Source: Candidatus Pacearchaeota archaeon (lineage in GTDB: Archaea; Nanobdellota; Nanobdellia; Pacearchaeales; GW2011-AR1). From it: a stretch of DNA of 64,000 nt. How positions within the stretch are numbered: position 1 is the first letter of the stretch; each line of letters opens with the position of its first letter. Shown here one piece after another: positions 16,663 through 54,754 of this stretch. Both the position numbers and the translations under genes were made by a program. The stretch lies in assembly GCA_016186365.1 (NCBI GenBank), contig JACPLT010000001.1, forward strand, positions 13,231 through 77,230, written 5' to 3'. The notes under the pieces were generated by a model. That model was not told the origin of the DNA. It was given only the letters and a program-made list of their open reading frames with translations, and did no database searches.

Positions 16663-19600
16663 TTATAGTATGTTCATTCTTTTTATTTTTTCTCTTATTT
16701 TAGCTTCCTCTCTTGCTCTTTTATTCTCTCTCATTTTACTAAAATTGTAGAATGGGTATTTTATAAATCCTATAATTTTAAGGAAAAATATTCTAACTCT
16801 TCCTTGTTTTTTAAATTCTTTTTCGGATTTGATAACTGCTCTTTCCAATTCTTTGTTAGTATTTTCAAATTGAATTTTGCCTGATTCATTTTTCTTTAGC
16901 ATCTCAAAAGTTATTCTCTCCCCTTCTATCTCTGCTAATCTCTCGTTCAAAATTTTAAATTCTGTGTTATATTCACTTTCAGATATTTTTCTATCTCTAT
17001 AGAACTGCTCCTGCACCTTTTTAATTTCATTCTCAACCTGAATTCTTTCTATTACTAAATCCTGCAAAATTTGCTGAGGTTTAAGCATTTTTATTCTTTT
17101 ATTTCTTAAGTTTAATCTCTCTTGTTTTATTTTCGCTAATTTGTTTTGATGCTGGCTCATTACTCTATGATACTCTCCAACAGAAATCTTTCCAGAAAAA
17201 TAATTTCTTTGAGCAGACAAGATAAGCCCCCTTATGTTGTCCTCTTCTTTATCAATGTCTTGTATCTTTCCAGTTATTGCAGATTTTTGATAGGTTTTAT
17301 AAGAAAAAATTCCAAACATTGTTAAAAGTACAAATCCTATTAAAACAAAATGCCAGTATAAATACAAGAATAAACCAAAATTGCCTTTTCTTTCAAGCAG
17401 AAGCAAAACCTGTGATGATTTAGCTCTTTCTTCTGCAGTTGCATAATCTCCTCTTTTAAATGCAGCTATTGCCATGTTTAAAACACTTTCAGCAGAATCC
17501 CCACTAAAAATAACTTTTCCAGTTAACATTGAATTAATAGAAACATTATCCCCATTTTCATCAACAATATCCTTTGCTACATTTCCTGTTAATAAATTAG
17601 TTTTTCTTGGATCTTTTAATGCTTCTAAAATTTTATTTATTAACTTATCAACCCCAACCGCTTTGTCTTTTATACTAATAATCTTTTCAGATAAAACCTG
17701 TGCTTCTTTATTTCTGTTTTCAGAAAGTTTATTTTTAGCTTGTTCAAGTAATTTATTAACCTCGTCTGTATTAAATCCAGAATTCGTCATTTCTAAAATC
17801 GCTTTTTCAGCTTCTGCTAAACTTAAATTGCTTTTTTCTTTGCTAACCTCTTGAATAATCAGTTTTATATTCTGGGTTTCTGTATAACTTATTTTTCCAG
17901 TTCCATCTACTTTATACCCCGATATAACTGCTTTCAGTGTATGTTCTTCATAACCTTCTTTGTAAGAAGGAATTTTTAATTTTACTGTGAATTTTTTAGT
18001 TTCTTTTGAATTAATTCTGTCTATTTTACTTGGAGATATGTCAACATACTGTGATGGAAATCCATCTAAAGTCATTGTTAAATCTTCCAAACTTGAATTA
18101 AAATATTTGTTATTTATTTCTATTTCAAAACTGTCCTGCTCTCCTCTTACGATTTCAATTGTTTTTGAATAAACAATTGATTCTCCACCTGCACCTGCCG
18201 TTCCACCACCACCTCCGCCACCACCAGTTCCAGGAGTTGTAATTGTTACTATTAAAGGATCTAAAATATTAATTTGCTTTGTTGCATTGCTAGTTGAATT
18301 CTCATTTGAATTAGACATTGCAGTTATATTGACAGTATTTGACGAAACAGAGCTTAAAACACCAATAACCAAGCTATTTGTAGAAGAAACTCCAATAGGA
18401 AGATTGCCAATATTTCTTGTATAATTTCCATTACTTAGAGAAAATTCAGAAGGCAAACTCCAATTAAGAACAACACCTGTTGCATCACTTGTTCCAAGAT
18501 TCTTTACACTTGCAACTAATTCAACTCCAGATTGTCCTCTTGTTACAGAACTAGAATAAGTATCAATGCTTGCAACAAGATAAGGTCCTGCTGCTGTTTG
18601 AATATAGACTTGCTTTGAATAAGCTTGTGTACCTGCATTAGAATTTATTGTAATACTATAATCATACAAACCTGTAGGAAGACTAACAGAATTAACTTCA
18701 ACAGAAATATTAATTGCATTTCCACTTGAAACACTGTAATTCATAGAAGAATTGCCAGTATAATTAATACTTAATTTTCCATTCAAACTTGTTGATGATA
18801 AAACTATACTAAAATTCAAAGGAGTATCACCAGTATTATTCAAATACAGCAAGCCAAGAGGATTATTATTGGTTTCTTGAGCAAGAGTATATGACTTAAT
18901 ATCAGGAATTGTTGTTGAATTATAAAATCTTGTATCATTCTCAACAACTAAAGTGTAATTTGAAGAAATATTTGAATTTCCAGCAGAATCAGTTGCATTG
19001 ATCTTAAAGTACCATGTTTCATTTCCCAAAGTAATAGAAGCATTATAATTTGTTAATGTTGTATTTGACATTGACAAAGAAGTCCATGAAATTGCAGAAG
19101 AATTTTTATACATCAACTTAACATTTGATATCTGATAATCCTCAACAATATCTGCACTAATATTTACTGTTACTCCAGGATCAAGCTCTGCAGTTGTATT
19201 AGGAGTATAACTTATATTATAAATTTGAGGAAAACTATCATCTGTAATATTTATATTATAACTAGTTGTTAAATTTCCTCTTCCTGATGAATCATATAAA
19301 TAAATCTGGCTATTAAATCCCGGCATGGTTGTGTTTCCTGCTGCAATTATATAACTTAAACTAGAGGAAGTTCCTGATAAGGAAATTTGTGAGGAGTTCT
19401 GCCAAGTTCCTGTTGCATTATAACCAATTATTGCATAACTCAAGCCAACTGCATCAGAAACAGATGCTGAGCAGTTAACATCTTGCGAATTATTAACAGG
19501 ATTTGTGCATGTAAATGAATTCACAGAAGGATTATTCAAATCAACATAAATTATCGTTGATTTGTTTGCTTGATTTTTATTAGTTGAAGAATCATTTGCA

Positions 19601-43165: not shown

Positions 43166-43777
43166 ATGAAAAAGAGCATAATATTGTTTATCTTGATAAT
43201 ATTTTTATCGGCGTTTGTATATGCTGAAGAACAACCAGGAGATGCAGGAAAGATTGCAGGAAAAACTGCGGTATCCGCAGTTTTAGGAACGAATGCTTTT
43301 CTTGAGAGAGATATCGTTGTTCCTGAAAATTTGCAGTTGGTTGCTAGGGTTTTATTTGGGTTGAAGGAAAATACGGATATCGCTTTTTCTGAATTTGTTG
43401 TTCTTTGTGCTGTTTGGATAATGCTTTTTATTATAATAATTAAGATTATGGTTTTTATGCCATTTTTGAACAAAGGAATACAAAAATTTGCAGGAGCATT
43501 AATTATAACTTGTTTAGCTTCTATTGCTGGAGGATTGCTTGCTTTAGTTGCTTTATTATTAGATTTGTCAAGTTTATTTGGGATATTTAATAAATATTCT
43601 GTTGTAACCTTGGTAATTGGAATAATTCTATCAATTGTTATTGTCCTTTTTGCGAGTCTTGCTACAAACAAAATTATAACTTCTTCTGATCGTGCACGAG
43701 CAGCTACATCGGGTTTACAAGCAGGGGCTACAGCAGGAATGCTTCAGCAACAGGGAAAAACAATGACTGGAAGATGA
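43166..43777 (+). CDS. Multi-TM membrane protein (family A)
   Basis: Signal peptide; RVLFGL...W motif shared with 43778-44482. Confidence 0.75.
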   Translation: MKKSIILFILIIFLSAFVYAEEQPGDAGKIAGKTAVSAVLGTNAFLERDIVVPENLQLVARVLFGLKENTDIAFSEFVVLCAVWIMLFIIIIKIMVFMPFLNKGIQKFAGALIITCLASIAGGLLALVALLLDLSSLFGIFNKYSVVTLVIGIILSIVIVLFASLATNKIITSSDRARAATSGLQAGATAGMLQQQGKTMTGR

Positions 43778-44482
43778 TTATTCAGCTATCTCTTGCCCTT
43801 CTTTGAATTTATCTGAAAATTCGATTATATTTCCCTCTTCTTGTTCTGCTTTTCTTTTCTTTTTTTCTTCATTTTTTTTATTTATATATGTTGAAAGAAT
43901 ATCTAAGAAATAATAAAATGCTAAGATGATTAATACAGAAGCGATTATTAACAAAGTTCTTGCCCAGGCCGCTTCTTTGCTAAAGATGAATACTCCTACT
44001 GCGTTTATTATTATTTTAAAAACTTTTAGATGAGCTAGGGTGAGTGCAAATAGCAATCCGATAATATAAGCTGCCCAGCCTTTTAGAAAGTCAAGAGCTG
44101 CGATCATTTTAGAAGATTTTAGGAAAACTATCAGCCAGAGAATAATAACAAATAGTAGTGTCATAGATAAAGCGTAATCCATGCCGAACAAAATCCTGAA
44201 AACAATGCTTATTCTTGATAAGAAAGAATCAATCTTGGAAATAATGCTGTTTTCCAGCAGGATTTTTCTCCATTCTTTTCCTAAGTAGTCCCATTTTGTT
44301 TGTGTTATATTTTTTAGCTCTTCTGTTGACGAGGGGACTCCTTCTGGGAATCCTCTTTCGTTTAATTCGCCATAAGCTGATGTTGGATTAGGGTTAGCTC
44401 CGTCTTGTGCTAGGGTTAGGGTTGAAACTAGGAAACTTGCTATTAATATACTCAAGATAAATATTAATTTATATTTTAACAT
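43778..44482 (-). CDS. Multi-TM membrane protein (family A)
   Basis: Signal peptide; RILFGM...W; C-terminal coiled coil. Confidence 0.75.
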   Translation of the reverse strand: MLKYKLIFILSILIASFLVSTLTLAQDGANPNPTSAYGELNERGFPEGVPSSTEELKNITQTKWDYLGKEWRKILLENSIISKIDSFLSRISIVFRILFGMDYALSMTLLFVIILWLIVFLKSSKMIAALDFLKGWAAYIIGLLFALTLAHLKVFKIIINAVGVFIFSKEAAWARTLLIIASVLIILAFYYFLDILSTYINKKNEEKKKRKAEQEEGNIIEFSDKFKEGQEIAE

Positions 44483-44921
44483 TTTCTATTAGTTTTTTAA
44501 GTTTAGGAAAAAATGAACTAAGAAACATTATAAATTTTTCAGCTTCTTCTTTTATATAACTTTTTCCATAATATTTTACTCCATTTCTGAATTGCCTTAG
44601 CTCATTCATCATGTTTATTTCATAATCTGGAAATTTAAGCTCATTTAAGTATGAAACTTCTGCTTCGTGAGCATAATTCCCAGAGGCAGAATATCCATCT
44701 AATAACATTTTTGCCCTTATTAATTCAATTAAAATATCATAAATTGATTCTATAATAAAATTGGCATTGTTATCTGTTATTTCTATAGTATTAACAATTT
44801 GTTTTAGAAAAATATCTCTTTTTTCAGAGTTTTCTGCTAATGAATTTGCCTTGTTCTTATCAGGATACATCTGTCTTACAATGCCCTCTTTTATGTATTC
44901 TTTAAATTCTCTTAAGCTCAT
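44469..44921 (-). CDS. HEPN-like protein
   Basis: Helical; AHEA; LRQFRNGVKYYG (R-x4-Y); downstream of MNT. Confidence 0.75.
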   Translation of the reverse strand: MSLREFKEYIKEGIVRQMYPDKNKANSLAENSEKRDIFLKQIVNTIEITDNNANFIIESIYDILIELIRAKMLLDGYSASGNYAHEAEVSYLNELKFPDYEINMMNELRQFRNGVKYYGKSYIKEEAEKFIMFLSSFFPKLKKLIENVKI

Positions 44922-45439
44922 AATTGAACTACTCCCTTTAATGTTATTCCATTTAAAATACTGCTCTTTAAATTTGTTTCTATACTTTTCAAATCTGGAT
45001 AAAAATTAATATTAATTTTTCTTTCGAGCAGTTTTTCAAAACTTTCTAGTTCCAAATTTTTTTCTTTATACCCTATTATGGCTATATCTATATCTGACCT
45101 TTCTATGTCCTCTCCTCTAGAATAGCTTCCGAATAAAATTATTGTTGATAAGGGAAATTTATCATATAAGTATTCAATTAGTCCTGATAGATACATTCTC
45201 TTTAAATTACTTACTCTTTTAAAATTTTTAAAATTTGAGTTATCTAAATTTGCTTTTACCTCGTATAGAAACTTTTTATCTATAGTTATCATATTTTCCT
45301 TTTCTAGCTGTTTTAACGAGCCAGATATAGATGGGGGGGAGATTTTCAATATCCTTGAAATTTCTCTTACATGGAATCTTCTTGTTGGAAAATCAAATAA
45401 TAACTCCTGGATTTTTTCTTTCGTGTCTGTGTTCTTCAT
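44918..45439 (-). CDS. HTH-minimal nucleotidyltransferase (MNT)
   Basis: wHTH (HVREISRILKISPPSIS); ILFGSYSRGED..SDIDIAI. Confidence 0.9.
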   Translation of the reverse strand: MKNTDTKEKIQELLFDFPTRRFHVREISRILKISPPSISGSLKQLEKENMITIDKKFLYEVKANLDNSNFKNFKRVSNLKRMYLSGLIEYLYDKFPLSTIILFGSYSRGEDIERSDIDIAIIGYKEKNLELESFEKLLERKININFYPDLKSIETNLKSSILNGITLKGVVQL

Positions 45440-45584
45440 TTTATATTTGTTTATTTAAAATAACAATTGTTAATTTAATATTTTATATGTTAATTTAAGA
45501 TAACAATAGTTTATAAAGATTTCTGTTTGAAGAAAGTTGCCGATTAGCGGGAGTTGAAAGGGTAAGAGAAGGGTTGATATCTTA

Positions 45585-46445
45585 TTATTCCATTTTTCCA
45601 CTGGCTATTTTTTCTAACCTTTTTGCGGTTTCAATCAATTTTTTCGTTTCTTCAGTTTCGCCTGTTACTTCTGCTAGCACATTCGCTCTTTTTCTTAGCA
45701 TTGCAGCGTCTGCTAAAGCTTCTTCTTTTGACATAACTTTTGAACTTTCTACATATCCTGCTATCCTTGTGTTGAAAAGGTATTGTCTAATTGTAGCATT
45801 AAAAGAAGCATAAATAATCAAGACTCCAAATATTGGGATATAAATTGGAAGAGCAAATTTCCAAACATTATCTAACTTTCCTGGAAACCACATTAATACA
45901 CTTATCCTATACCCTAGATATAACACAAATGCCCAAATTATTATTTTTTGTAATAATATTTTTGCAGGATTGGGGTTTTTGGTTAATTCCCAAGTTATCC
46001 CAAATATGATTATAAATGGTATAATTGATGTTAAAGTTATTCCCATTGCCCCATAGCTGACTAATGCCGCATATAATTCTTCTGGAGCAATATAAATAAT
46101 TGATAAGTAGGATATTATTATTGCTAATAGCCACCTAATCGCAGTTTTTCCTTTTCCTGTGCCTTGTCCTACTATCGGCACATATTCAAGGACACTCACT
46201 ATAATTAATAAAAGCATACCAAAAACAAGGAATTTAGTTAAAGCCAAATTCCAAATTGATTCCCCTGTAATTGTTTTTCCAAAAACTTTTTCAAATAGAG
46301 TGGGTCCCGATATTTTGGTAAATGCGTTATTTATCGCATCTGCTATGCTAGATGCAGGTATTGCAGCAACAAAATTAGCAACGAACGAAATCATAATTAA
46401 ACCTAGAAACATTAATGCAAATATTCTCACACTTTCTTTTTTCAT
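45585..46445 (-). CDS. Multi-TM membrane protein (family B)
   Basis: Signal peptide, about 6 TM, YGAMGITLTSIIPFII, C-terminal coiled coil. Confidence 0.8.
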   Translation of the reverse strand: MKKESVRIFALMFLGLIMISFVANFVAAIPASSIADAINNAFTKISGPTLFEKVFGKTITGESIWNLALTKFLVFGMLLLIIVSVLEYVPIVGQGTGKGKTAIRWLLAIIISYLSIIYIAPEELYAALVSYGAMGITLTSIIPFIIIFGITWELTKNPNPAKILLQKIIIWAFVLYLGYRISVLMWFPGKLDNVWKFALPIYIPIFGVLIIYASFNATIRQYLFNTRIAGYVESSKVMSKEEALADAAMLRKRANVLAEVTGETEETKKLIETAKRLEKIASGKME

Positions 46446-46545
46446 TTTGTAATGAAAATAATTCTCTATTTAAATCTTTCTCCCTAATTTAGTGTTACTA
46501 AAAAATTATAACAGAGAAGAAAAAACTAATTTTTCTTTTGTGTTA

Positions 46546-46712
46546 TGTCAAGAACCCTACACTAAAAGTGTAGGGCGTTTCGGGTTCTTGAGCATGTCAG
46601 AAACTTATGTTTCTGATCACTCTCAGAAATTAAAAATTTCTGAAGTGCTCAAAAATTGCGTTTATTTACTCACGAACTAAAGTAAGGAGGTTGTATAAAC
46701 CAATTTTTGACA
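46546..46712. mobile_element. Composite hairpin element (4 modules) flanked by TGTTA direct repeats
   Basis: tgtcaagaacc...ggttcttgagca, two small hairpins, tgctcaaaaattg...caatttttgaca; homologous to the reverse complement of 51118-51240. Confidence 0.8.
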
Positions 46713-46953
46713 TGTTAAGGTTACCCATATTATATTTTGTGTAACTTTGAGATTACCTATATTTGTGAGTCTTTTGGCAGTTATGACTTTGAAACGCTAA
46801 ACTAGCAATTAAAACATTAAGAAAAGAACTTGAGAATTAATTATTTAACATCAATAATAGTGGGCTTTTATTGAGTTACAAATAGATTTATTTTTAATTC
46901 AGAAAAATAATTGCCTTTAGCAATAATTACTTTTTTATTTTTTATCTGTAGAA

Positions 46954-47110
46954 TGTTACATTCATGTCATATTTGTTACATTCATGTCATATTTGTTACA
47001 TTCATGTCATATTTGTTACATTCATGTCATATTTGTTACATTCATGTCATATTTGTTACATTCATGTCATATTTGTTTTTGTTACATTCATGTCATATTT
47101 GTTACATTCA
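46954..47110. repeat. Tandem repeat, 20-bp unit tgttacattcatgtcatatt, 7 full copies plus a partial
   Basis: Perfect copies with one 6-nt interruption at 47074-47079; no spacers. Confidence 0.95.
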
Positions 47111-47184
47111 AACTCCTAAAAGTTTTCCTTAAATTAAGGAAAATAGTATATAAAAATTTCCTATTTTAAAGGAAAACTTTATTT

Positions 47185-47451
47185 TATTGGAAGAATGTTC
47201 AGCAGGAAGAAGTAGATTTTGTTGTTAAAGAAAATGGCAAAATAAAAGAATTAATTCAAGTGTGCAAAGATATAAGCGATATTAATACTAAGCAAAGAGA
47301 AATTCGTGCATTGTTAAAAGCGAGCAAGGATTTGGAATGCAAGAATCTTTCTATAATAACTGAAAATTATGAATCTGAAGAAGAAGCTGAATGGTTTGAT
47401 TTAAAAGGAAAAATTAAGTTTGTTCCCTTGTGGAAATGGCTCTTGACATGA
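47185..47451 (+). pseudogene. C-terminal remnant of an AAA ATPase/DUF4143-type protein
   Basis: YWKNVQQEEVDFVVK...LIQVC...REIRAL...IKFVPLWKWLL; ATPase part absent. Confidence 0.75.
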
Positions 47452-47649
47452 TTTTCTATGTATATAGTAAAAGACAAAAAATTTTTAACCAACTTTTTTC
47501 TTTTCTTATCTATTAAAGGACAGAAAATGGTTAATTATTAATATCCTTTAATATAATATAGCGGTAACAAAATATCCCCGTTTTATTAACTTTTAAGTAA
47601 TTACTATATTTTCCGAAATATTTATAAAGACGGGGAAAATTAATTATTT

Positions 47650-48516
47650 ATGAAAAATAAAAAGCTGGTGATTTTGCCGATATTATTTATCGCGATTTTA
47701 GCTTTGTCTTTTGTTGTTAGTGCTGCTGAAAATGCAATTGTAAAAATGGGGGCTGATTTTGTTGAGAGTGTTTATAGTACATTGGAACCTTATCTTAAAG
47801 TTTTAGTTGGATCTACCGCTTCAGATCTTGTTCCTGGTTTTAGTGTGTTTGTAGCCAAAATCTTATTATTAATTATTTTGATAGCTATTATTTATATTAC
47901 ATTATCTAAATCTATGGCTGGATTTTTTGCTGATAAAATGTGGGTATTATGGATTATTTCGATTATCTTATCTGTGATTGGAGTAAGATTTTTAACTCCT
48001 GAATGGATTAATGCAATACTTTTGCCCACAAATACTTTTGCTATTGCAATAACTGCCGGTCTTCCTTTTATATTGTACTTTATGATTGTTAAAGGTTTTA
48101 ATGCGTCTGTTGCTAGAAGAACTGCTTGGATATTTTTTGCAGTAATATTTTTGATTTTATATGCTTCAAGAACAGGAGTTTCGGGAATTACAGCAGAAGC
48201 AAAAAAAGCATATGTTATCTATCCAATAACTGCGGGATTAGCATTACTTATGGTAGTATTAGACGGAACAATAAGAAGTTGGTGGTTTAAGGTTCAAAGA
48301 GAGAGTGCTTTAGCGGGAGGTAAATCCGCGACACTATTAAGTCTTGAAACTGCTCGTACAAATATAGGTACTAATTATTCCGGTAATCCTGCGGGATATT
48401 CTGGAATATACCCTGCTGCGCAAGGTGGAGGATTTGGTCAAATAGGTACTGATGCCTTTTTAGCAGATTCTGCGTATTTGGAAAAACAGATTAGAAAAGT
48501 TATAAAAGCAAAGTAA
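47650..48516 (+). CDS. Multi-TM membrane protein (family B)
   Basis: LPTNTFAIAITAGLPFILYF, RRTAWIFFAV. Confidence 0.8.
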   Translation: MKNKKLVILPILFIAILALSFVVSAAENAIVKMGADFVESVYSTLEPYLKVLVGSTASDLVPGFSVFVAKILLLIILIAIIYITLSKSMAGFFADKMWVLWIISIILSVIGVRFLTPEWINAILLPTNTFAIAITAGLPFILYFMIVKGFNASVARRTAWIFFAVIFLILYASRTGVSGITAEAKKAYVIYPITAGLALLMVVLDGTIRSWWFKVQRESALAGGKSATLLSLETARTNIGTNYSGNPAGYSGIYPAAQGGGFGQIGTDAFLADSAYLEKQIRKVIKAK

Positions 48517-48681
48517 GTCTTTTAGAGTCCTTTGCTTTATTTGGTTCTATCTTTTCTTAATTTTTAAATATATTAGCCCTTTTTTTAATTCTTACTCCTT
48601 TTTTGTATTTTTCATTCGGGAAATAAAAATTTCCCTCAAAATTTCCCAAATATTTATAAACCTAATATTTCTATTCTAATA

Positions 48682-49476
48682 ATGAAAAAGAGAAATAAAA
48701 ATCTGATGATTTTTTTTGGGATGTTTATTATTATGCTGTTTTTATTTATGAACTTTGCCTCTGCTCAAGTTTATGATGATTTGAGAGCGAGTTCAGAACA
48801 AATCATCCAGTGGATTAATGATATTTTTTCTCCGTTCTTTCATGCTCTTTTAGGTGCAGACTCTTTGGATAAATACTTCTTTGAAAGAATATTAATTCTT
48901 ATTCTGGTTTATGTTGTTGTTTGGAGTGTTCTTAAAAAAGTGGAAATTTTCAAGGATCATAAAGGAGTTGTTTTTGTTGTTTCTTTGATAGTTGCTCTTC
49001 TTGGAGCTAGGTATATGTCTGAAATCGATATACTTGAAGGGATACTACTACCTTACGGAACCTTGGCAATAGCTATTTCTGTCGCTCTGCCTTTTTTAAT
49101 ATATTTCTTTTTTGTTAATCTTTCTATTCCTAGTAAGGGGGGAAGAAGAATTGCCTGGATATTATTTGCAGCTGTTTTTTTTGGATTATGGATTTCTAGA
49201 GGCGTTGATTCAATTGGAAACATTGGAAATTGGATATATGGTATTGGGGTTGTAGCTGTTTTGTTGTGTCTTATTTTTGATGATAAGATACAAGAATATT
49301 TTGGCATGTTTGAGGCTACTAGGGCTAGAAGAATCAGATTTGACCAACAAATTGCAGATAGAGAGGCGCAGTTAGTTCATTATCGAGGAATTCAATCGCC
49401 TTCTCAGAGTGTAAAGGACACTATAAAGAGATATGAAGATGAGATTAAAGAATTATATAGGCAGAGAAGAAAATAA
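48682..49476 (+). CDS. Multi-TM membrane protein (family B)
   Basis: LPYGTLAIAISVALPFLIYF, RRIAWILFAA, coiled-coil tail. Confidence 0.8.
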   Translation: MKKRNKNLMIFFGMFIIMLFLFMNFASAQVYDDLRASSEQIIQWINDIFSPFFHALLGADSLDKYFFERILILILVYVVVWSVLKKVEIFKDHKGVVFVVSLIVALLGARYMSEIDILEGILLPYGTLAIAISVALPFLIYFFFVNLSIPSKGGRRIAWILFAAVFFGLWISRGVDSIGNIGNWIYGIGVVAVLLCLIFDDKIQEYFGMFEATRARRIRFDQQIADREAQLVHYRGIQSPSQSVKDTIKRYEDEIKELYRQRRK

Positions 49477-51308: not shown

Positions 51309-51511
51309 AGAACTGCGTAGCTTGTATGACATTTATCCAGCAGTTCTCTATCTGTTTAACTGCACTAAATTGTCATCTAACTAATGCAGTTATCCATATT
51401 AAAAAAATTGAGGGAGGAAAAATTAAAAAATGACAAGTTATGATGTTATTGAAGTGTCAGAGATTTTCGCTGAAGCTCTAATCCCTGAACACTTCCAAAA
51501 CAAGGAGCAAA

Positions 51512-52279
51512 ATGACAAGTTATGATGTTATTGGAAGTATAGCAATACTGAAGTTTCCGAGGGGAATGAAGAAAAGCGAGAAGAAGAAAACAGCTTTGGA
51601 ATTGCTGGAAAAGCACAAAAATCTAAAAACTGTTGTTGAAAAGTCAGAAAAGGTAAGGGGAAGATTGAGGACGATAAAAACATTATTTCTTGCAGGAGAG
51701 AAAACAAAAGAGAGTATTCATAATGAATCTGGATGCAGGTTTAAATTAAATATTGAAAAGTGCTATTTTTCTCCTAGATTGAGCAATGAAAGAATAGAAG
51801 TTGCAAAAAAAATAGCAGAAGGGAGCAAGGTTTTGGTTTTATTTGCAGGGGTTTCTCCGTTTTCTATTGTTATTGGAAAAATTGCCAAGCCAGAAAAAAT
51901 TGTTTCTGTTGAGCTTGGAAGAGAGTGCTGCAGATATGGCAAAGAAAATGCCAGACTGAATAAACTTGAGAGAGTGGTGGAGATTGTTCAGGGAGATGTC
52001 AAGAAATTAAAAAAATTAATTAAAAAAAGAAAGTTTGATGTGATAGTTATGCCTCGTCCGCAACTTAAGGAAACTTTTCTTGCTTATATCTGGGAATTCT
52101 GCAAGAAAGATACAGAAATATTTTATTACGGATTTGGGAAGGATATTGAGGAAATAGTTTCAGAAATAGAGAAAGAGGCAGGGAAAGCTAAAAAGAAAAT
52201 CAGGATTATTGAAAAAAGAAATGCAGGAGATATTGCTCCGTATAGATATAGGTTTTTAGTTAGGTTTAAGTTAGTTTAA
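51512..52279 (+). CDS. Trm5/Tyw2-family tRNA SAM-dependent transferase (Met-10+ like)
   Basis: SYDVIGSIAI, HNESGCRFKL...YFSPRLSNER, LFAGVSPF, N..LN, GDV, MPRP. Confidence 0.88.
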   Translation: MTSYDVIGSIAILKFPRGMKKSEKKKTALELLEKHKNLKTVVEKSEKVRGRLRTIKTLFLAGEKTKESIHNESGCRFKLNIEKCYFSPRLSNERIEVAKKIAEGSKVLVLFAGVSPFSIVIGKIAKPEKIVSVELGRECCRYGKENARLNKLERVVEIVQGDVKKLKKLIKKRKFDVIVMPRPQLKETFLAYIWEFCKKDTEIFYYGFGKDIEEIVSEIEKEAGKAKKKIRIIEKRNAGDIAPYRYRFLVRFKLV

Positions 52280-52438
52280 GCCGTAATCTGCATATTGGCT
52301 TTCTACTTCGGAATCTAAATCTTCTTTGGAATCATGATATAACCTACTTCTTTCTGGTTCATATAAAGATATGGGAAGAGAATCTACATCTTCATATAAT
52401 CTGGAATCCTGATAATTCTGTGCTGGTTCTGCTGTCAT
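52271..52438 (-). CDS. Small acidic protein (55 aa)
   Basis: MTAEPAQNYQDSRLYEDVDSLPISLYEPERSRLYHDSKEDLDSEVESQYADYGLN; TTTAAA box about 25 bp upstream; not in the ORF track. Confidence 0.55.
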   Translation of the reverse strand: MTAEPAQNYQDSRLYEDVDSLPISLYEPERSRLYHDSKEDLDSEVESQYADYGLN

Positions 52439-52473
52439 ATTTTTCTTATTTTTAGCGGGTTTTTAAATATTAT

Positions 52474-52770
52474 TATTGAACCTTTAGGTGTGCGAGACCA
52501 GGACATATGTCCTGAACCTATACACTATTGAACCTTTAGAAGGCTTCAAGAACTTATGTTCTTGACAGTGCTCAGAAACTGAGAAAATTCCAGAAGAATT
52601 TTCGAGGTGCTCAGAAACTGAGAAAATTCCAGAAGAATTTTCGAGGTGCTCAAAAACCCAAACATATCTTACGCTTCAATGCAAGGTTTTTGACATGCAC
52701 GATATAAATAGCATTTCTGACATTCCCAACTCTCGTGCTTTCAGCACAAGTCAGCACTTTAAGTGCTGCT
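52474..52770. repeat. Nested cluster of hairpin modules with a 14-bp direct repeat and a 39-bp tandem duplication
   Basis: tattgaacctttag at 52474 and 52526; gtgctcagaaactgagaaaattccagaagaattttcgag twice (52568-52645); several TGCTCA..TGACA stems. Confidence 0.8.
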
Positions 52771-52793
52771 CGCCCCTAAGCTATATTCTCTTT

Positions 52794-53064
52794 TCAATCT
52801 TAATAGCAGTTAAACCTTTAGAAAAGGTTTCCAAACTATCAGTTAAAGTCGCTTTTCGACTTTAACTGCTGTTGGAGCCTCTCCGCAGGTACCCAACCGT
52901 CGTATTTCGCTATGCTCAATACAACTTGCAACCATAAAGGTTGCCTTTCTCCAACTGCTCAAATTCTTTTATCAATCTTAATCGCAGTTAAACCTTTAGA
53001 AAAGGTTTCCAAACTATCAGTTAAAGTCGCTTTTCGACTTTAACTGCTGTTGGAGCCTCTCCGC
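52794..53064. repeat. 93-bp direct repeat including the 3' end of the HerA-like gene
   Basis: 52794-52886 versus 52972-53064, one mismatch. Confidence 0.85.
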
Positions 53065-54754
53065 CGTGCCAGGTGAACTTGGGGCGGACTCGCATGGGAT
53101 AAATTCTTTCTGAATTGTCGTCGAGAATAATTGCTGAGCCCTTTAAACTCGGAAGTTCATCCATATATTTGTTTATGCTTGAATAAACATAAGACTGCAT
53201 TATTTCATTTAGTGCCTGAATATCCGGAAGGGCAGTAACTCTATGAGACAAGATTATATCTGCTTGTGTTATTGCATCTTTTGCAAGAGAGCCGGGCTGT
53301 TGTGTGGCCATAACTAGGCTTATTCCTGGCTGCCTTCCCTCTCTTAATAACTGGATTAAAGCATCTGTTGCAGGAGTTTTTCCATCATTGGGCAGGAATT
53401 CGTGAACTTCATCAATAAAAATCCAGACAAGAGGCATCTCCCTCTTTTGCTTGAATGAAAGATAGTCAATCCCATGCTGAACTGCCTGAACTTCTTCTGT
53501 TTTTCTTGACAGCATTCTTTCCTTGAAAAGCTTTTTTGATATCAAACTTATAACTAGAGCGCGAACATTAAATGCCCCTGTCGAGGAATACATGCTCAAA
53601 TCAAGAACTGAAGTTTCTCCTGCTTTTATCAGTTTGGAAATTTCTGTTTCCTGCTCTGAAAACACTTTCCAGGAATCTGCTGCTTCAAATAAACTTGAAG
53701 CAGAGTTTCTTGCATCAATTGTTGAGCTGTGTTCAGAATCTATTTTTTTAATTATGTCTTTTATTGAAAAATTTAGATTTTCTTCTTTCAGCGTGTTTAT
53801 CACTTTTTCTATCAAAACAGCAACTGGCTCGGTTATAGAGAGATTAAAAGTTGTTATCCAGTCTTCTGATTCCAATTCTTTTGGAGAAATTGAAAACTTT
53901 TCATCAACAGGAATCCCTCTTTTTTCATAATCTTCAAAATATCCCAATGGAATAAAAATTTTTACAGGCGTCTTTTTAGGCTTAAGTTTCCATTCTTCCA
54001 GCAAATCTTTTTCTTTTTCATTTTCGAATTTCATTGTCCAGAATACTCCCATTGTATCCAGTATAAGCCCTGCAATGTTTTCTCTTTCCTCTTGAGGCAG
54101 AGTTGCGAGTTCTTCTGCTATTACTCCCAGAGAATAAGACTTTCCCGAATTATGTGAAATAATTCCATTAGCAATAAATGAATGATTTTTATCTACAGAT
54201 AAATCATAAACTTTTTTTATCCCCTCTATAATTTTTATATTTTTTATCCTAACAGGAAATAAATCTGTAAAATTATTATTAACTGATATTAATTTATCTC
54301 CTTTATTTAATTTTTCTGCTTCCATCCATAGAAGAGATAACAATTTTTCTCCAGAAGTTATCAGCAGGGGGTGCTCTTTTGTCAGCTGCAGTTTTCTGCC
54401 GTCTTCTAATTCTATTTCTATAAGATTTTCACTTATAGGGTATTCTAATAACTCTGCATTTTCCCATTCAAACTTTTTTTCATCTTTGTTGAAAGAGAGA
54501 ATTTTGTTTTCTTTGTTAAAATCTTTTATCGGTAAATATCCTTTATCGGTAAAGATAGATGTTCCTTCAGTCAGACATCCTCTTTTTCCTGAAACCAGGA
54601 CTACATGGCTTCTTGCGATGTCCATATAAATCGGATTTGACAGCGAAGTATACTGCCCCATTTTTACGAAACCTTTTCCTAGATAAATCAACCCTCTTTT
54701 TTCGAACCTCTTTTTGTCTGAAGAATCTCTTCCTATGATTATATCATATGGCAT
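53021..54754 (-). CDS. HerA/DUF87-family ATPase with mini-intein
   Basis: Walker A SGKRG|..|SGKS, ILDTMG, Walker B FIDEVHEF, LREGRQPGISLVMATQQP. Confidence 0.9.
   Translation of the reverse strand: MPYDIIIGRDSSDKKRFEKRGLIYLGKGFVKMGQYTSLSNPIYMDIARSHVVLVSGKRGCLTEGTSIFTDKGYLPIKDFNKENKILSFNKDEKKFEWENAELLEYPISENLIEIELEDGRKLQLTKEHPLLITSGEKLLSLLWMEAEKLNKGDKLISVNNNFTDLFPVRIKNIKIIEGIKKVYDLSVDKNHSFIANGIISHNSGKSYSLGVIAEELATLPQEERENIAGLILDTMGVFWTMKFENEKEKDLLEEWKLKPKKTPVKIFIPLGYFEDYEKRGIPVDEKFSISPKELESEDWITTFNLSITEPVAVLIEKVINTLKEENLNFSIKDIIKKIDSEHSSTIDARNSASSLFEAADSWKVFSEQETEISKLIKAGETSVLDLSMYSSTGAFNVRALVISLISKKLFKERMLSRKTEEVQAVQHGIDYLSFKQKREMPLVWIFIDEVHEFLPNDGKTPATDALIQLLREGRQPGISLVMATQQPGSLAKDAITQADIILSHRVTALPDIQALNEIMQSYVYSSINKYMDELPSLKGSAIILDDNSERIYPMRVRPKFTWHGGEAPTAVKVEKRL
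54149..54577 (-). mobile_element. 143-aa mini-intein in the Walker A loop
   Basis: CLTEGT...LTKEHPLL...VYDLSV..NHSFIANGIISHN|S; no endonuclease. Confidence 0.93.

Follow-up and report, generated by a model that had tools for sequence, protein, structure and literature searches.

The four 3' ends that follow one another behind a conserved HerA-like ATPase gene of a Pacearchaeota archaeon rather probably record a series of insertions, in which tiny non-coding hairpin units entered the last codons of that gene. Each unit would carry at its front a copy of the gene end from a related lineage, leaving the gene intact and pushing the prior end downstream. The units enter at fixed points, carry a copy of the right flank, and have arms complementary to the target and conserved single-strand folds; they have no coding capacity, and their number varies. 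Repeated integration of units that bring a replacement gene end had been proposed in a first-pass annotation of this DNA. This reading is supported by doubled ends at 73 loci, by the mostly synonymous differences between paired ends, by tRNA ends and by unit numbers that vary between near-identical hosts. The insertion of units with a gene end stands, and three points were refined: the alleles number three, the units are of two nested types of one family, and the hairpin formed by the current end can be explained by an inverted arm.

All positions refer to the window, the whole stretch of 64,000 nucleotides that was analyzed, which is contig C43 of a genome (G000) of 0.97 Mb, with a GC content of 32.8% and a completeness of 82%. 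Named records with the same ATPase gene carry the labels Pacearchaeota, Woesearchaeota or Nanoarchaeota, which indicates that the host is a DPANN archaeon.

53021..54754, minus strand: host gene, a conserved HerA/DUF87-like ATPase of 577 aa (open reading frame and profile searches)
54149-54577, minus strand: mini-intein within the P-loop of the ATPase, about 143 aa (about residues 60-202; profile searches)

The ATPase is called HerA-like only, because its score lies below every curated cut-off of the NCBIfam HerA equivalogs and above that of Pfam DUF87. A homologue is present in 58 of the 61 related genomes searched, and the C-terminus, WHGGEAPTA-x-K-x-EK-x-x-stop, is well conserved in relatives. 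No endonuclease domain was found in the mini-intein, and most relatives have an open frame that is shorter than the intein-bearing frame of G000.

A gene for a Trm5-type methyltransferase is convergent with the ATPase gene. The start of this gene (MTSYDVI, 25 identical nt) is present twice, 82 nt apart, at 51427-51533 on the plus strand. Between the two starts lies an insert that forms a hairpin and has a new purine-rich stretch resembling a ribosome-binding site; the arrangement mirrors, at a 5' end, the doubled 3' ends. The window also holds a 55-codon open reading frame between the stack and the Trm5 gene (52271-52438, minus strand) that has no NCBIfam match, an intergenic tandem array of about 7 copies of a 21-nt unit (46954-47110, plus strand) and, on both strands of 43166-49476, several similar-looking membrane-protein frames of 200-290 aa, three of which were scanned and gave no Pfam match.

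The four ends on the minus strand lie where the first-pass annotation had placed them, and they represent three alleles rather than four, since ends 1 and 3 are identical.

53021-53050, minus strand: end 1, the current end, TAVKVEKRL* (sequence)
52959-52988, minus strand: end 2, TAIKIDKRI* (sequence), probably the replacement end of the large unit M, later displaced by U1
52843-52884, minus strand: end 3, GEAPTAVKVEKRL* (sequence), an orphan copy identical to the current end
52781-52810, minus strand: end 4, TAIKIEKRI*, probably the oldest end of the stack, adjoining the flank

Ends 2 and 4 differ at 6 of 30 nt, which amount to three synonymous codons, one change from stop to stop and one Asp/Glu exchange. 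End 1 differs from ends 2 and 4 at 11 and 10 nt, with V/I, L/I and E/D as the only peptide changes; it was confirmed as a perfect hairpin, with a stem of 12 bp, that encodes nearly the same peptide in other codons. Ends 1 and 3 lie within an 81-nt exact repeat, R, whose copies are 178 nt apart, in the layout flank-R-middle-R-flank.

The assembly was checked in contigs of four runs of one study, possibly the source of the window; none of their records covers the four ends together. Run X1 has R as one 79-nt contig with a depth of 14, the middle piece has a depth of 6.7, and the flanks have depths of 6.7-8.8. The middle piece joins R at both its ends, and the depths fit two tandem copies; the loop in these contigs is consistent with a tandem copy at twice the flank depth. 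All four runs have 12 additional bases behind 52884 that are missing from the window. Since they complete a terminal hairpin resembling that of related units, the window has a deletion or an assembly slip at this point. Neither an excised circle nor a same-strain empty site was seen in the DNA contigs.

The stack consists of two nested units of one hairpin family. The 178-nt spacing splits into U1, of 62 nt (end 1 and a 32-nt spacer), and M, of 116 nt (128 nt with the bases found in the runs), which is made of G-E-A-P, end 2 and a 74-nt body; U1 occurs twice.

53051..53062, minus strand: G-E-A-P core, the start of the sequence duplicated by M and the usual start point at the ATPase in relatives (comparison of relatives)
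52989..53050, minus strand: U1 copy 1, 62 nt, end 1 (53021-53050) plus the 32-nt spacer, which best matches the type II loci L033 and L104, at their terminal hairpin
53018..53046, minus strand: perfect hairpin, 12 bp, with Arg-Leu-stop read from its right arm, the reverse complement of the A-V-K-V codons
52990..53008, minus strand: U1 terminal hairpin of the type II family, forming a strict bulge-helix-bulge shape with the first bases of end 2
52885..52958, minus strand: M body, homologous to the spacer of L104
52949-52958, minus strand: inverted arm of the M body, 10 nt (sequence)
52928-52944, minus strand: hairpin A of the M body (sequence)
52903-52921, minus strand: module B of the M body (sequence)
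End of the M body, minus strand: terminal hairpin, incomplete in the window and 12 nt longer in 4 of 4 runs (run contigs)
52811..52872, minus strand: U1 copy 2, identical to copy 1 (exact repeat)
52440..52780, minus strand: further hairpin modules behind the stack (repeat and motif comparison)

The last of these regions holds a type II module that is identical at 28 of 28 positions to one on contig C17 of G000. This module is split by a member of a repeat found across the genome, the first 14 nt of which occur 20 times in G000. The region also has a 39-nt tandem pair at 52568-52645 and two further motifs resembling terminal hairpins. End 4, too, may have come as a replacement at an earlier time.

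The order of events is suggested by the inverted arm of M. As a reverse complement, this arm fits the Pro-Thr junction of a gene free of U1 at 10 of 10 positions, and the current gene at 9 of 10. Because the arm matches in full only a gene that lacks U1, M was likely built on a U1-free allele and came in first, with U1 arriving later in both copies. The entry point of M would have been immediately upstream of the G-E-A-P codons; with M would have come TAIKIDKRI*, leaving TAIKIEKRI* as an orphan. U1 would later have taken its place at the Pro/Thr codon boundary in each of the two copies that resulted, through two insertions, through conversion or through the arrival of M from a donor that already had U1. 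The M body is homologous to the spacer of L104 from the arm to the terminal hairpin (score 82; maximum of 2000 shuffles, 50); the L104 unit has a length of 129, and its host gene agrees with that of G000 at 82% of all bases and at 66% of third positions. Terminal inverted repeats and a short exact target duplication of the MITE type are absent from the units.

The palindromic form of the current end is rare by chance: random codings of TAVKVEKRL* reached a 9-bp stem in 13 of 100,000 cases, and in 38 single-ended relatives the stem at the gene end has 4 bp at most. Its Arg codon is the rare CGA, which makes up 3.3% of the 7107 Arg codons in G000. Behind the stop, type II units have an inverted copy of a stretch of the carried end, on average 8.7 nt long. 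In U1 this arm starts two codons upstream of the stop, and the A-V-K-V codons, taken as their reverse complement, give Arg-Leu-stop. Judging from these letters, the arm would have written the last codons of the current end, and selection may have kept this version since the protein still ends properly. The locus also contributes a sequence rule for a perfectly palindromic coding end.

The C-terminus and the downstream DNA were compared among relatives. A doubled end was found in 1 of 29 relatives picked by protein similarity. The C-terminal pattern was matched in 149 of 401 genomes, and tandem ends 118-183 nt apart occurred in at least 10 genomes besides G000 among the matches listed; two doublets, in G074 and G087, proved on checking not to be tandem. 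Scans of the collection gave 30 and 63 loci, which with 11 earlier ones make 104 and reduce to 76 distinct entries, and to 73 distinct other loci after removal of those that contained N or in which one copy was truncated. An orphan was matched by the search pattern only if its E-A-P-T was intact, and fully decayed orphans were missed in this way; with this pattern, and with loci that are kin, the counts of doubled ends overstate their independence.

Nine of the 73 loci have unrelated tails and were set aside, and 64 with comparable tails were counted. Outside the search pattern, the differences fall on the three codon positions as 43/34/200, and 176 changed codons are synonymous against 50 non-synonymous (neutral share, 0.20); with the nine loci restored, the numbers are 189 and 102. 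Paired ends agree in 8.25 of 9 residues, against 4.8 between loci, and pairs with at least 10 base differences still agree in 7.2 residues, against 4.6 between loci. In 16 of the 64 pairs the ends are identical. The predominance of synonymous differences indicates that the ends diverged while coding, in related hosts, which makes import likely. Orphans decay, since beside the nine unrelated tails (9 of 73) five more have lost or early stops, and they are therefore probably not maintained. No decayed orphans were seen by eye at 36 empty sites.

Stacks are present at other loci too, in all at 14 of the 73. Two loci with 95% identity upstream (L055 and L102) have three units and one unit, respectively, and have the first unit, the last orphan and the flank in common; two others (L096 and L077) have two units and one, with a common last orphan and flank. 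At L126 the units differ from those of near-identical hosts. The direction of the events, that is, which copy came in, would follow from the position of the flank. A comparison of arms with both copies favored the active copy as the incoming one in five cases and the orphan in two, 60 of the 67 being uninformative. Incoming ends are not richer in GC at third positions (136 against 157 of 577), nor are CGN codons more frequent in them (6 against 4). Their better folding compared with the last orphans (24 against 11 of 48, p = 0.098) is a trend only.

The type II family comprises U1 and M of G000 and the units at L033, L104, L037, L105, L123 and L141, with the order arm, hairpin A, module B, terminal hairpin and then orphan end. 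An alignment of eight sequences showed compensatory change at 7 of 18 predicted pairs. The mean arm length of 8.7 nt against the own gene compares with 6.5 nt against other loci and 5.4 nt at the 36 empty sites. L105 has an extra copy that starts at the Thr codon, as the orphan of U1 does, with a similar hairpin-shaped end as read by eye. The terminal hairpin of U1 and the start of its orphan form a strict bulge-helix-bulge (BHB); 5 of 2153 hairpins in the genome qualify as such, and 2 of the 5 are these. A model of the family matched 5 of 151 genomes and gave seven new sites, one with a 24-nt flank copy and an arm, one with a 6-nt copy and five with none. The first of these sites, L161, lies at a tRNA end on the opposite strand, and its 24-nt copy is one of the right flank; on contig C17 of G000 a type II unit duplicates 26 nt of intergenic DNA.

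A second family, type I, provides the body at 67 of the 73 loci, the remaining 6 lacking it. Its stem lies between tandem GA pairs, with a C-G or T-A closing pair in 62 of 67. The stem has 149 G-U against 23 C-A pairs when read on the sense strand, and this large excess indicates that the core folds on that strand. In 47 of the 67 cores, which were chosen for well-paired stems so that the covariation count leans towards structure, 95% of the cells pair, against 23-50% in slid controls. The core model matched 71 of 151 genomes, up to 34 times each. The right flank has a copy upstream at 22 of the 43 sites examined (null, 8.4%), and 21 sites are without duplication; the former include tRNA ends, the ATPase (four sites) and one other protein end with synonymous recoding (L199). 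At L182 (G247, contig C7, 22136-22191) the core starts at position 37/38 of a tRNA-Gln(CUG) intron; a 4-bp exon-intron helix can be read there by eye. At L213 (G119, contig C3, 42454-42515) the core lies in frame, over about 20 codons, inside an open frame of 623 codons, which we take to resemble a translation factor.

When other genes of G000 were searched for doubled ends, the ATPase alone among the protein ends clearly exceeded the null: its end-anchored peptide score is 67, and the next best of 989 open reading frames scored 34 (the null expects 0.4 at 35 or more). The tRNA genes do carry such ends. The 3' end is doubled in 9 of 33, and an arm of at least 8 nt (8-13) is present in 8 of these 9 against 1 of the 24 others. 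In several of the tRNA cases the repeat extends beyond the gene end into the flank, and a tRNA on contig C32 has units of two families in a row. Many of the tRNA introns on contigs C6, C10, C11, C17 and C32 share a hairpin-plus-tail module, and the tRNA-Gly intron on C17 has 302 nt with internal tandem repeats. On contig C12, at about 18050-18130 (L146), EKLLESID* and EKFLESIK* stand 27 nt apart with an arm that matches the active codons; the score is within the null range. A scan of 12 loci against Rfam gave no match at the gathering score and three weak matches far below the cut-off, and resemblances to tRNA halves, 5S rRNA, box C/D RNA, integron attC and ribozymes found no support.

As to how a unit would move, we see about an even chance that it travels as a folded single strand and finds its site by base pairing, both through the arm behind the carried end and through a helix between terminal hairpin and target. 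This short helix would join the terminal hairpin of the unit to the first target bases, and a host enzyme would perform the strand exchange in trans. The last orphan would then be the resident end, and the unit would bring the carried end along from a related host. Our best guess for the activity, and a tentative one, is a Xer-like tyrosine recombinase or general recombination. The 62- and 116-nt units contain no gene and are thus without an integrase of their own. Among six Pfam families sought in five carriers (Y1 transposase, reverse transcriptase, tyrosine recombinase, IS110 recombinase, splicing endonuclease and Cas1), no specific dedicated enzyme or autonomous partner emerged. A tyrosine recombinase and the tRNA splicing endonuclease are each present in all five carriers, and both are general; the tyrosine recombinase matches of G000 lie on contigs other than that of the window. 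A Y1 transposase is present in three of five and a reverse transcriptase in one of five. Cas1 was found in none of these five incomplete genomes, and the IS110 recombinase (PF02371) was likewise found in none (completeness, 82-89%). G000 has four near-identical IS200-like Y1 transposase copies with common hairpin ends, on C20, C27, C37 and C43, and two reverse transcriptase genes, on C28 and C11.

Known elements resemble these units in part. Prophage e14 encodes its own integrase. This element, of 15 kb, is integrated within the 3' end of E. coli icd, with the pseudogene icdC behind it; the intact end stands in front, the orphan C-terminal copy behind carries synonymous and conservative changes, and loss of e14 recombines the two icd ends (PMC13626634). 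The units are like e14 in that they insert near the 3' terminus of a gene, inside it, and are preceded by an intact end and followed by the displaced one; they are unlike it in their size of 62-180 nt (about a hundredth), in encoding nothing, and in having target-complementary arms, stacked arrays and many targets. Casposons are archaeal, target the 3'-distal part of aEF-2 or a tRNA, are flanked by a target duplication, and have terminal inverted repeats and Cas1, with the target sequence unaltered (PMC4046053). The units share with casposons the conserved gene or tRNA 3' ends as targets and the flanking duplication, but they lack terminal inverted repeats, their copies differ, and their five incomplete carrier genomes gave no Cas1; membership was rejected on the absence of the repeats and of Cas1. 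An IS110/bridge-RNA element was rejected in the same way on the absence of PF02371 from the five carriers, which are 82-89% complete.

IS200/IS605 elements are not known to make a target duplication. For one of them, IS608, a folded single-stranded intermediate and a target chosen by base pairing are described (PMC5934647). Both features would apply to the units only by inference, and on these grounds IS608 is a possible parallel. The units have a long flank copy, however, and the ends of the Y1 elements resident in G000 do not resemble them by eye, and for these reasons they were not taken for a non-autonomous derivative of IS200/IS605. REP/BIME and MITE-like repeats are short, non-coding, modular hairpins that occur in many copies and in mosaic stacks. 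Unlike these, the units have a flank copy of 25-46 nt that is often recoded and is not a short exact duplication, they have no terminal inverted repeats, and they occupy fixed sites inside conserved gene ends. Archaeal BHB introns are approached by the strict BHB of U1 and by the type I core in the tRNA intron at 37/38. In contrast to such introns, splicing at the BHB of U1 would not rejoin the gene, and the 73 loci have no consistent BHB; a frame-restoring intron was rejected, given that cleavage at the U1 junction motif does not restore the host frame. The most fitting reading of the units, which are members of no family tested, is that of end-replacing integrative elements in a minimal version without coding capacity. 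Our search, in literature largely outside subscription journals, found no published description of such units.

Against an insertion of travelling units it might be argued that ordinary hairpin repeats break the gene end and that host recombination or repair then copies the intact allele of a relative in front, the arms being scars of template switching. We consider such a rescue unlikely. At least three unrelated hairpin bodies with the same flanking layout would agree with it, as would tandem cores at one site (L051, L126) and type I cores that lack a duplication (21 of 43 sites) or lie in frame in a gene (L213) or in a tRNA intron (L182). However, in dozens of loci the arms at the ATPase keep a common centre that is not complementary, and new template switches would not remake it. 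Moreover, M is homologous between hosts along its whole body, and the flank copy also occurs where a rescue would be needless (L161 and contig C17 of G000).

The decay of the orphans, at nine loci with unrelated tails and five more with lost or early stops, also bears on the improbable case that both ends are functional, with the insert spliced from the mRNA in the manner of tRNA or often flipping out of the DNA and with all copies selected as switchable C-termini. Little would be gained by a switch between peptides so nearly alike. The strict BHB at U1, the splicing endonuclease of all five carriers and the intron position of the tRNA-Gln core do point towards splicing, but cutting at the U1 sites would leave the reading frame unrestored. 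In addition, relaxed BHBs are present at 55 of the 73 loci against 46-49 in shuffled sequences, with no common position, and only 4 would restore the frame.

A local origin, in which the gene end was duplicated in tandem and the spare copies then drifted neutrally, appears largely refuted from the sequence comparison, and we hold it to be very improbable. Neutral drift predicts about 80% non-synonymous changes, whereas 78% of the changed codons are synonymous, with up to 15 differences in 39 nt; different hosts have homologous spacers, and the copies start at a fixed point. The 16 identical pairs, the identity of the two U1 copies and the inclusion of flank in some repeats are what a duplication would leave.

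A strain-chimeric assembly has less chance still. The data are a short-read metagenome, the window lacks 12 bases that all four runs have, and no record spans the stack; yet the middle piece is joined in X1 to the repeat at both ends, with the repeat at twice the flank depth, and strain mixture cannot create such a loop. The same layout also recurs in many independent assemblies. A diversity-generating retroelement with template and variable repeats, brought to mind by the reverse transcriptases of G000 and by repeats at a gene C-terminus beside hairpins, has a negligible chance and is ruled out by the substitution spectrum, which follows no adenine rule (of 347 differing positions, A stands at 135 in the orphan and at 147 in the active copy), and the reverse transcriptase occurs in one of five carriers, on other contigs.

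With the successive insertion of units as the preferred reading, this locus gives an internal order of events and two entry points for one family in one gene. In its broadest form, which we regard as possible but less likely than not, Pacearchaeota would hold protein-free mobile units of 60-180 nt that are retargeted by base pairing, bear target-complementary arms and a captured gene end, and depend on a host enzyme in trans. Such units would move alleles of gene ends and tRNA halves between lineages, and their cores would also seed tRNA introns; the present locus would be a three-step nested record that includes last codons and a stop written by an arm. A practical consequence is that short-read assemblies are broken or distorted by such stacks where genes and tRNAs end. 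The type I core within a tRNA intron bears on the spread of archaeal tRNA introns. If true, short complementary arms together with a host enzyme would make a minimal programmable insertion system. If right, the reading would also mean that gene-end alleles can move between lineages, and that a common, undescribed and harmless route exists for gene-free DNA into conserved genes of DPANN archaea.
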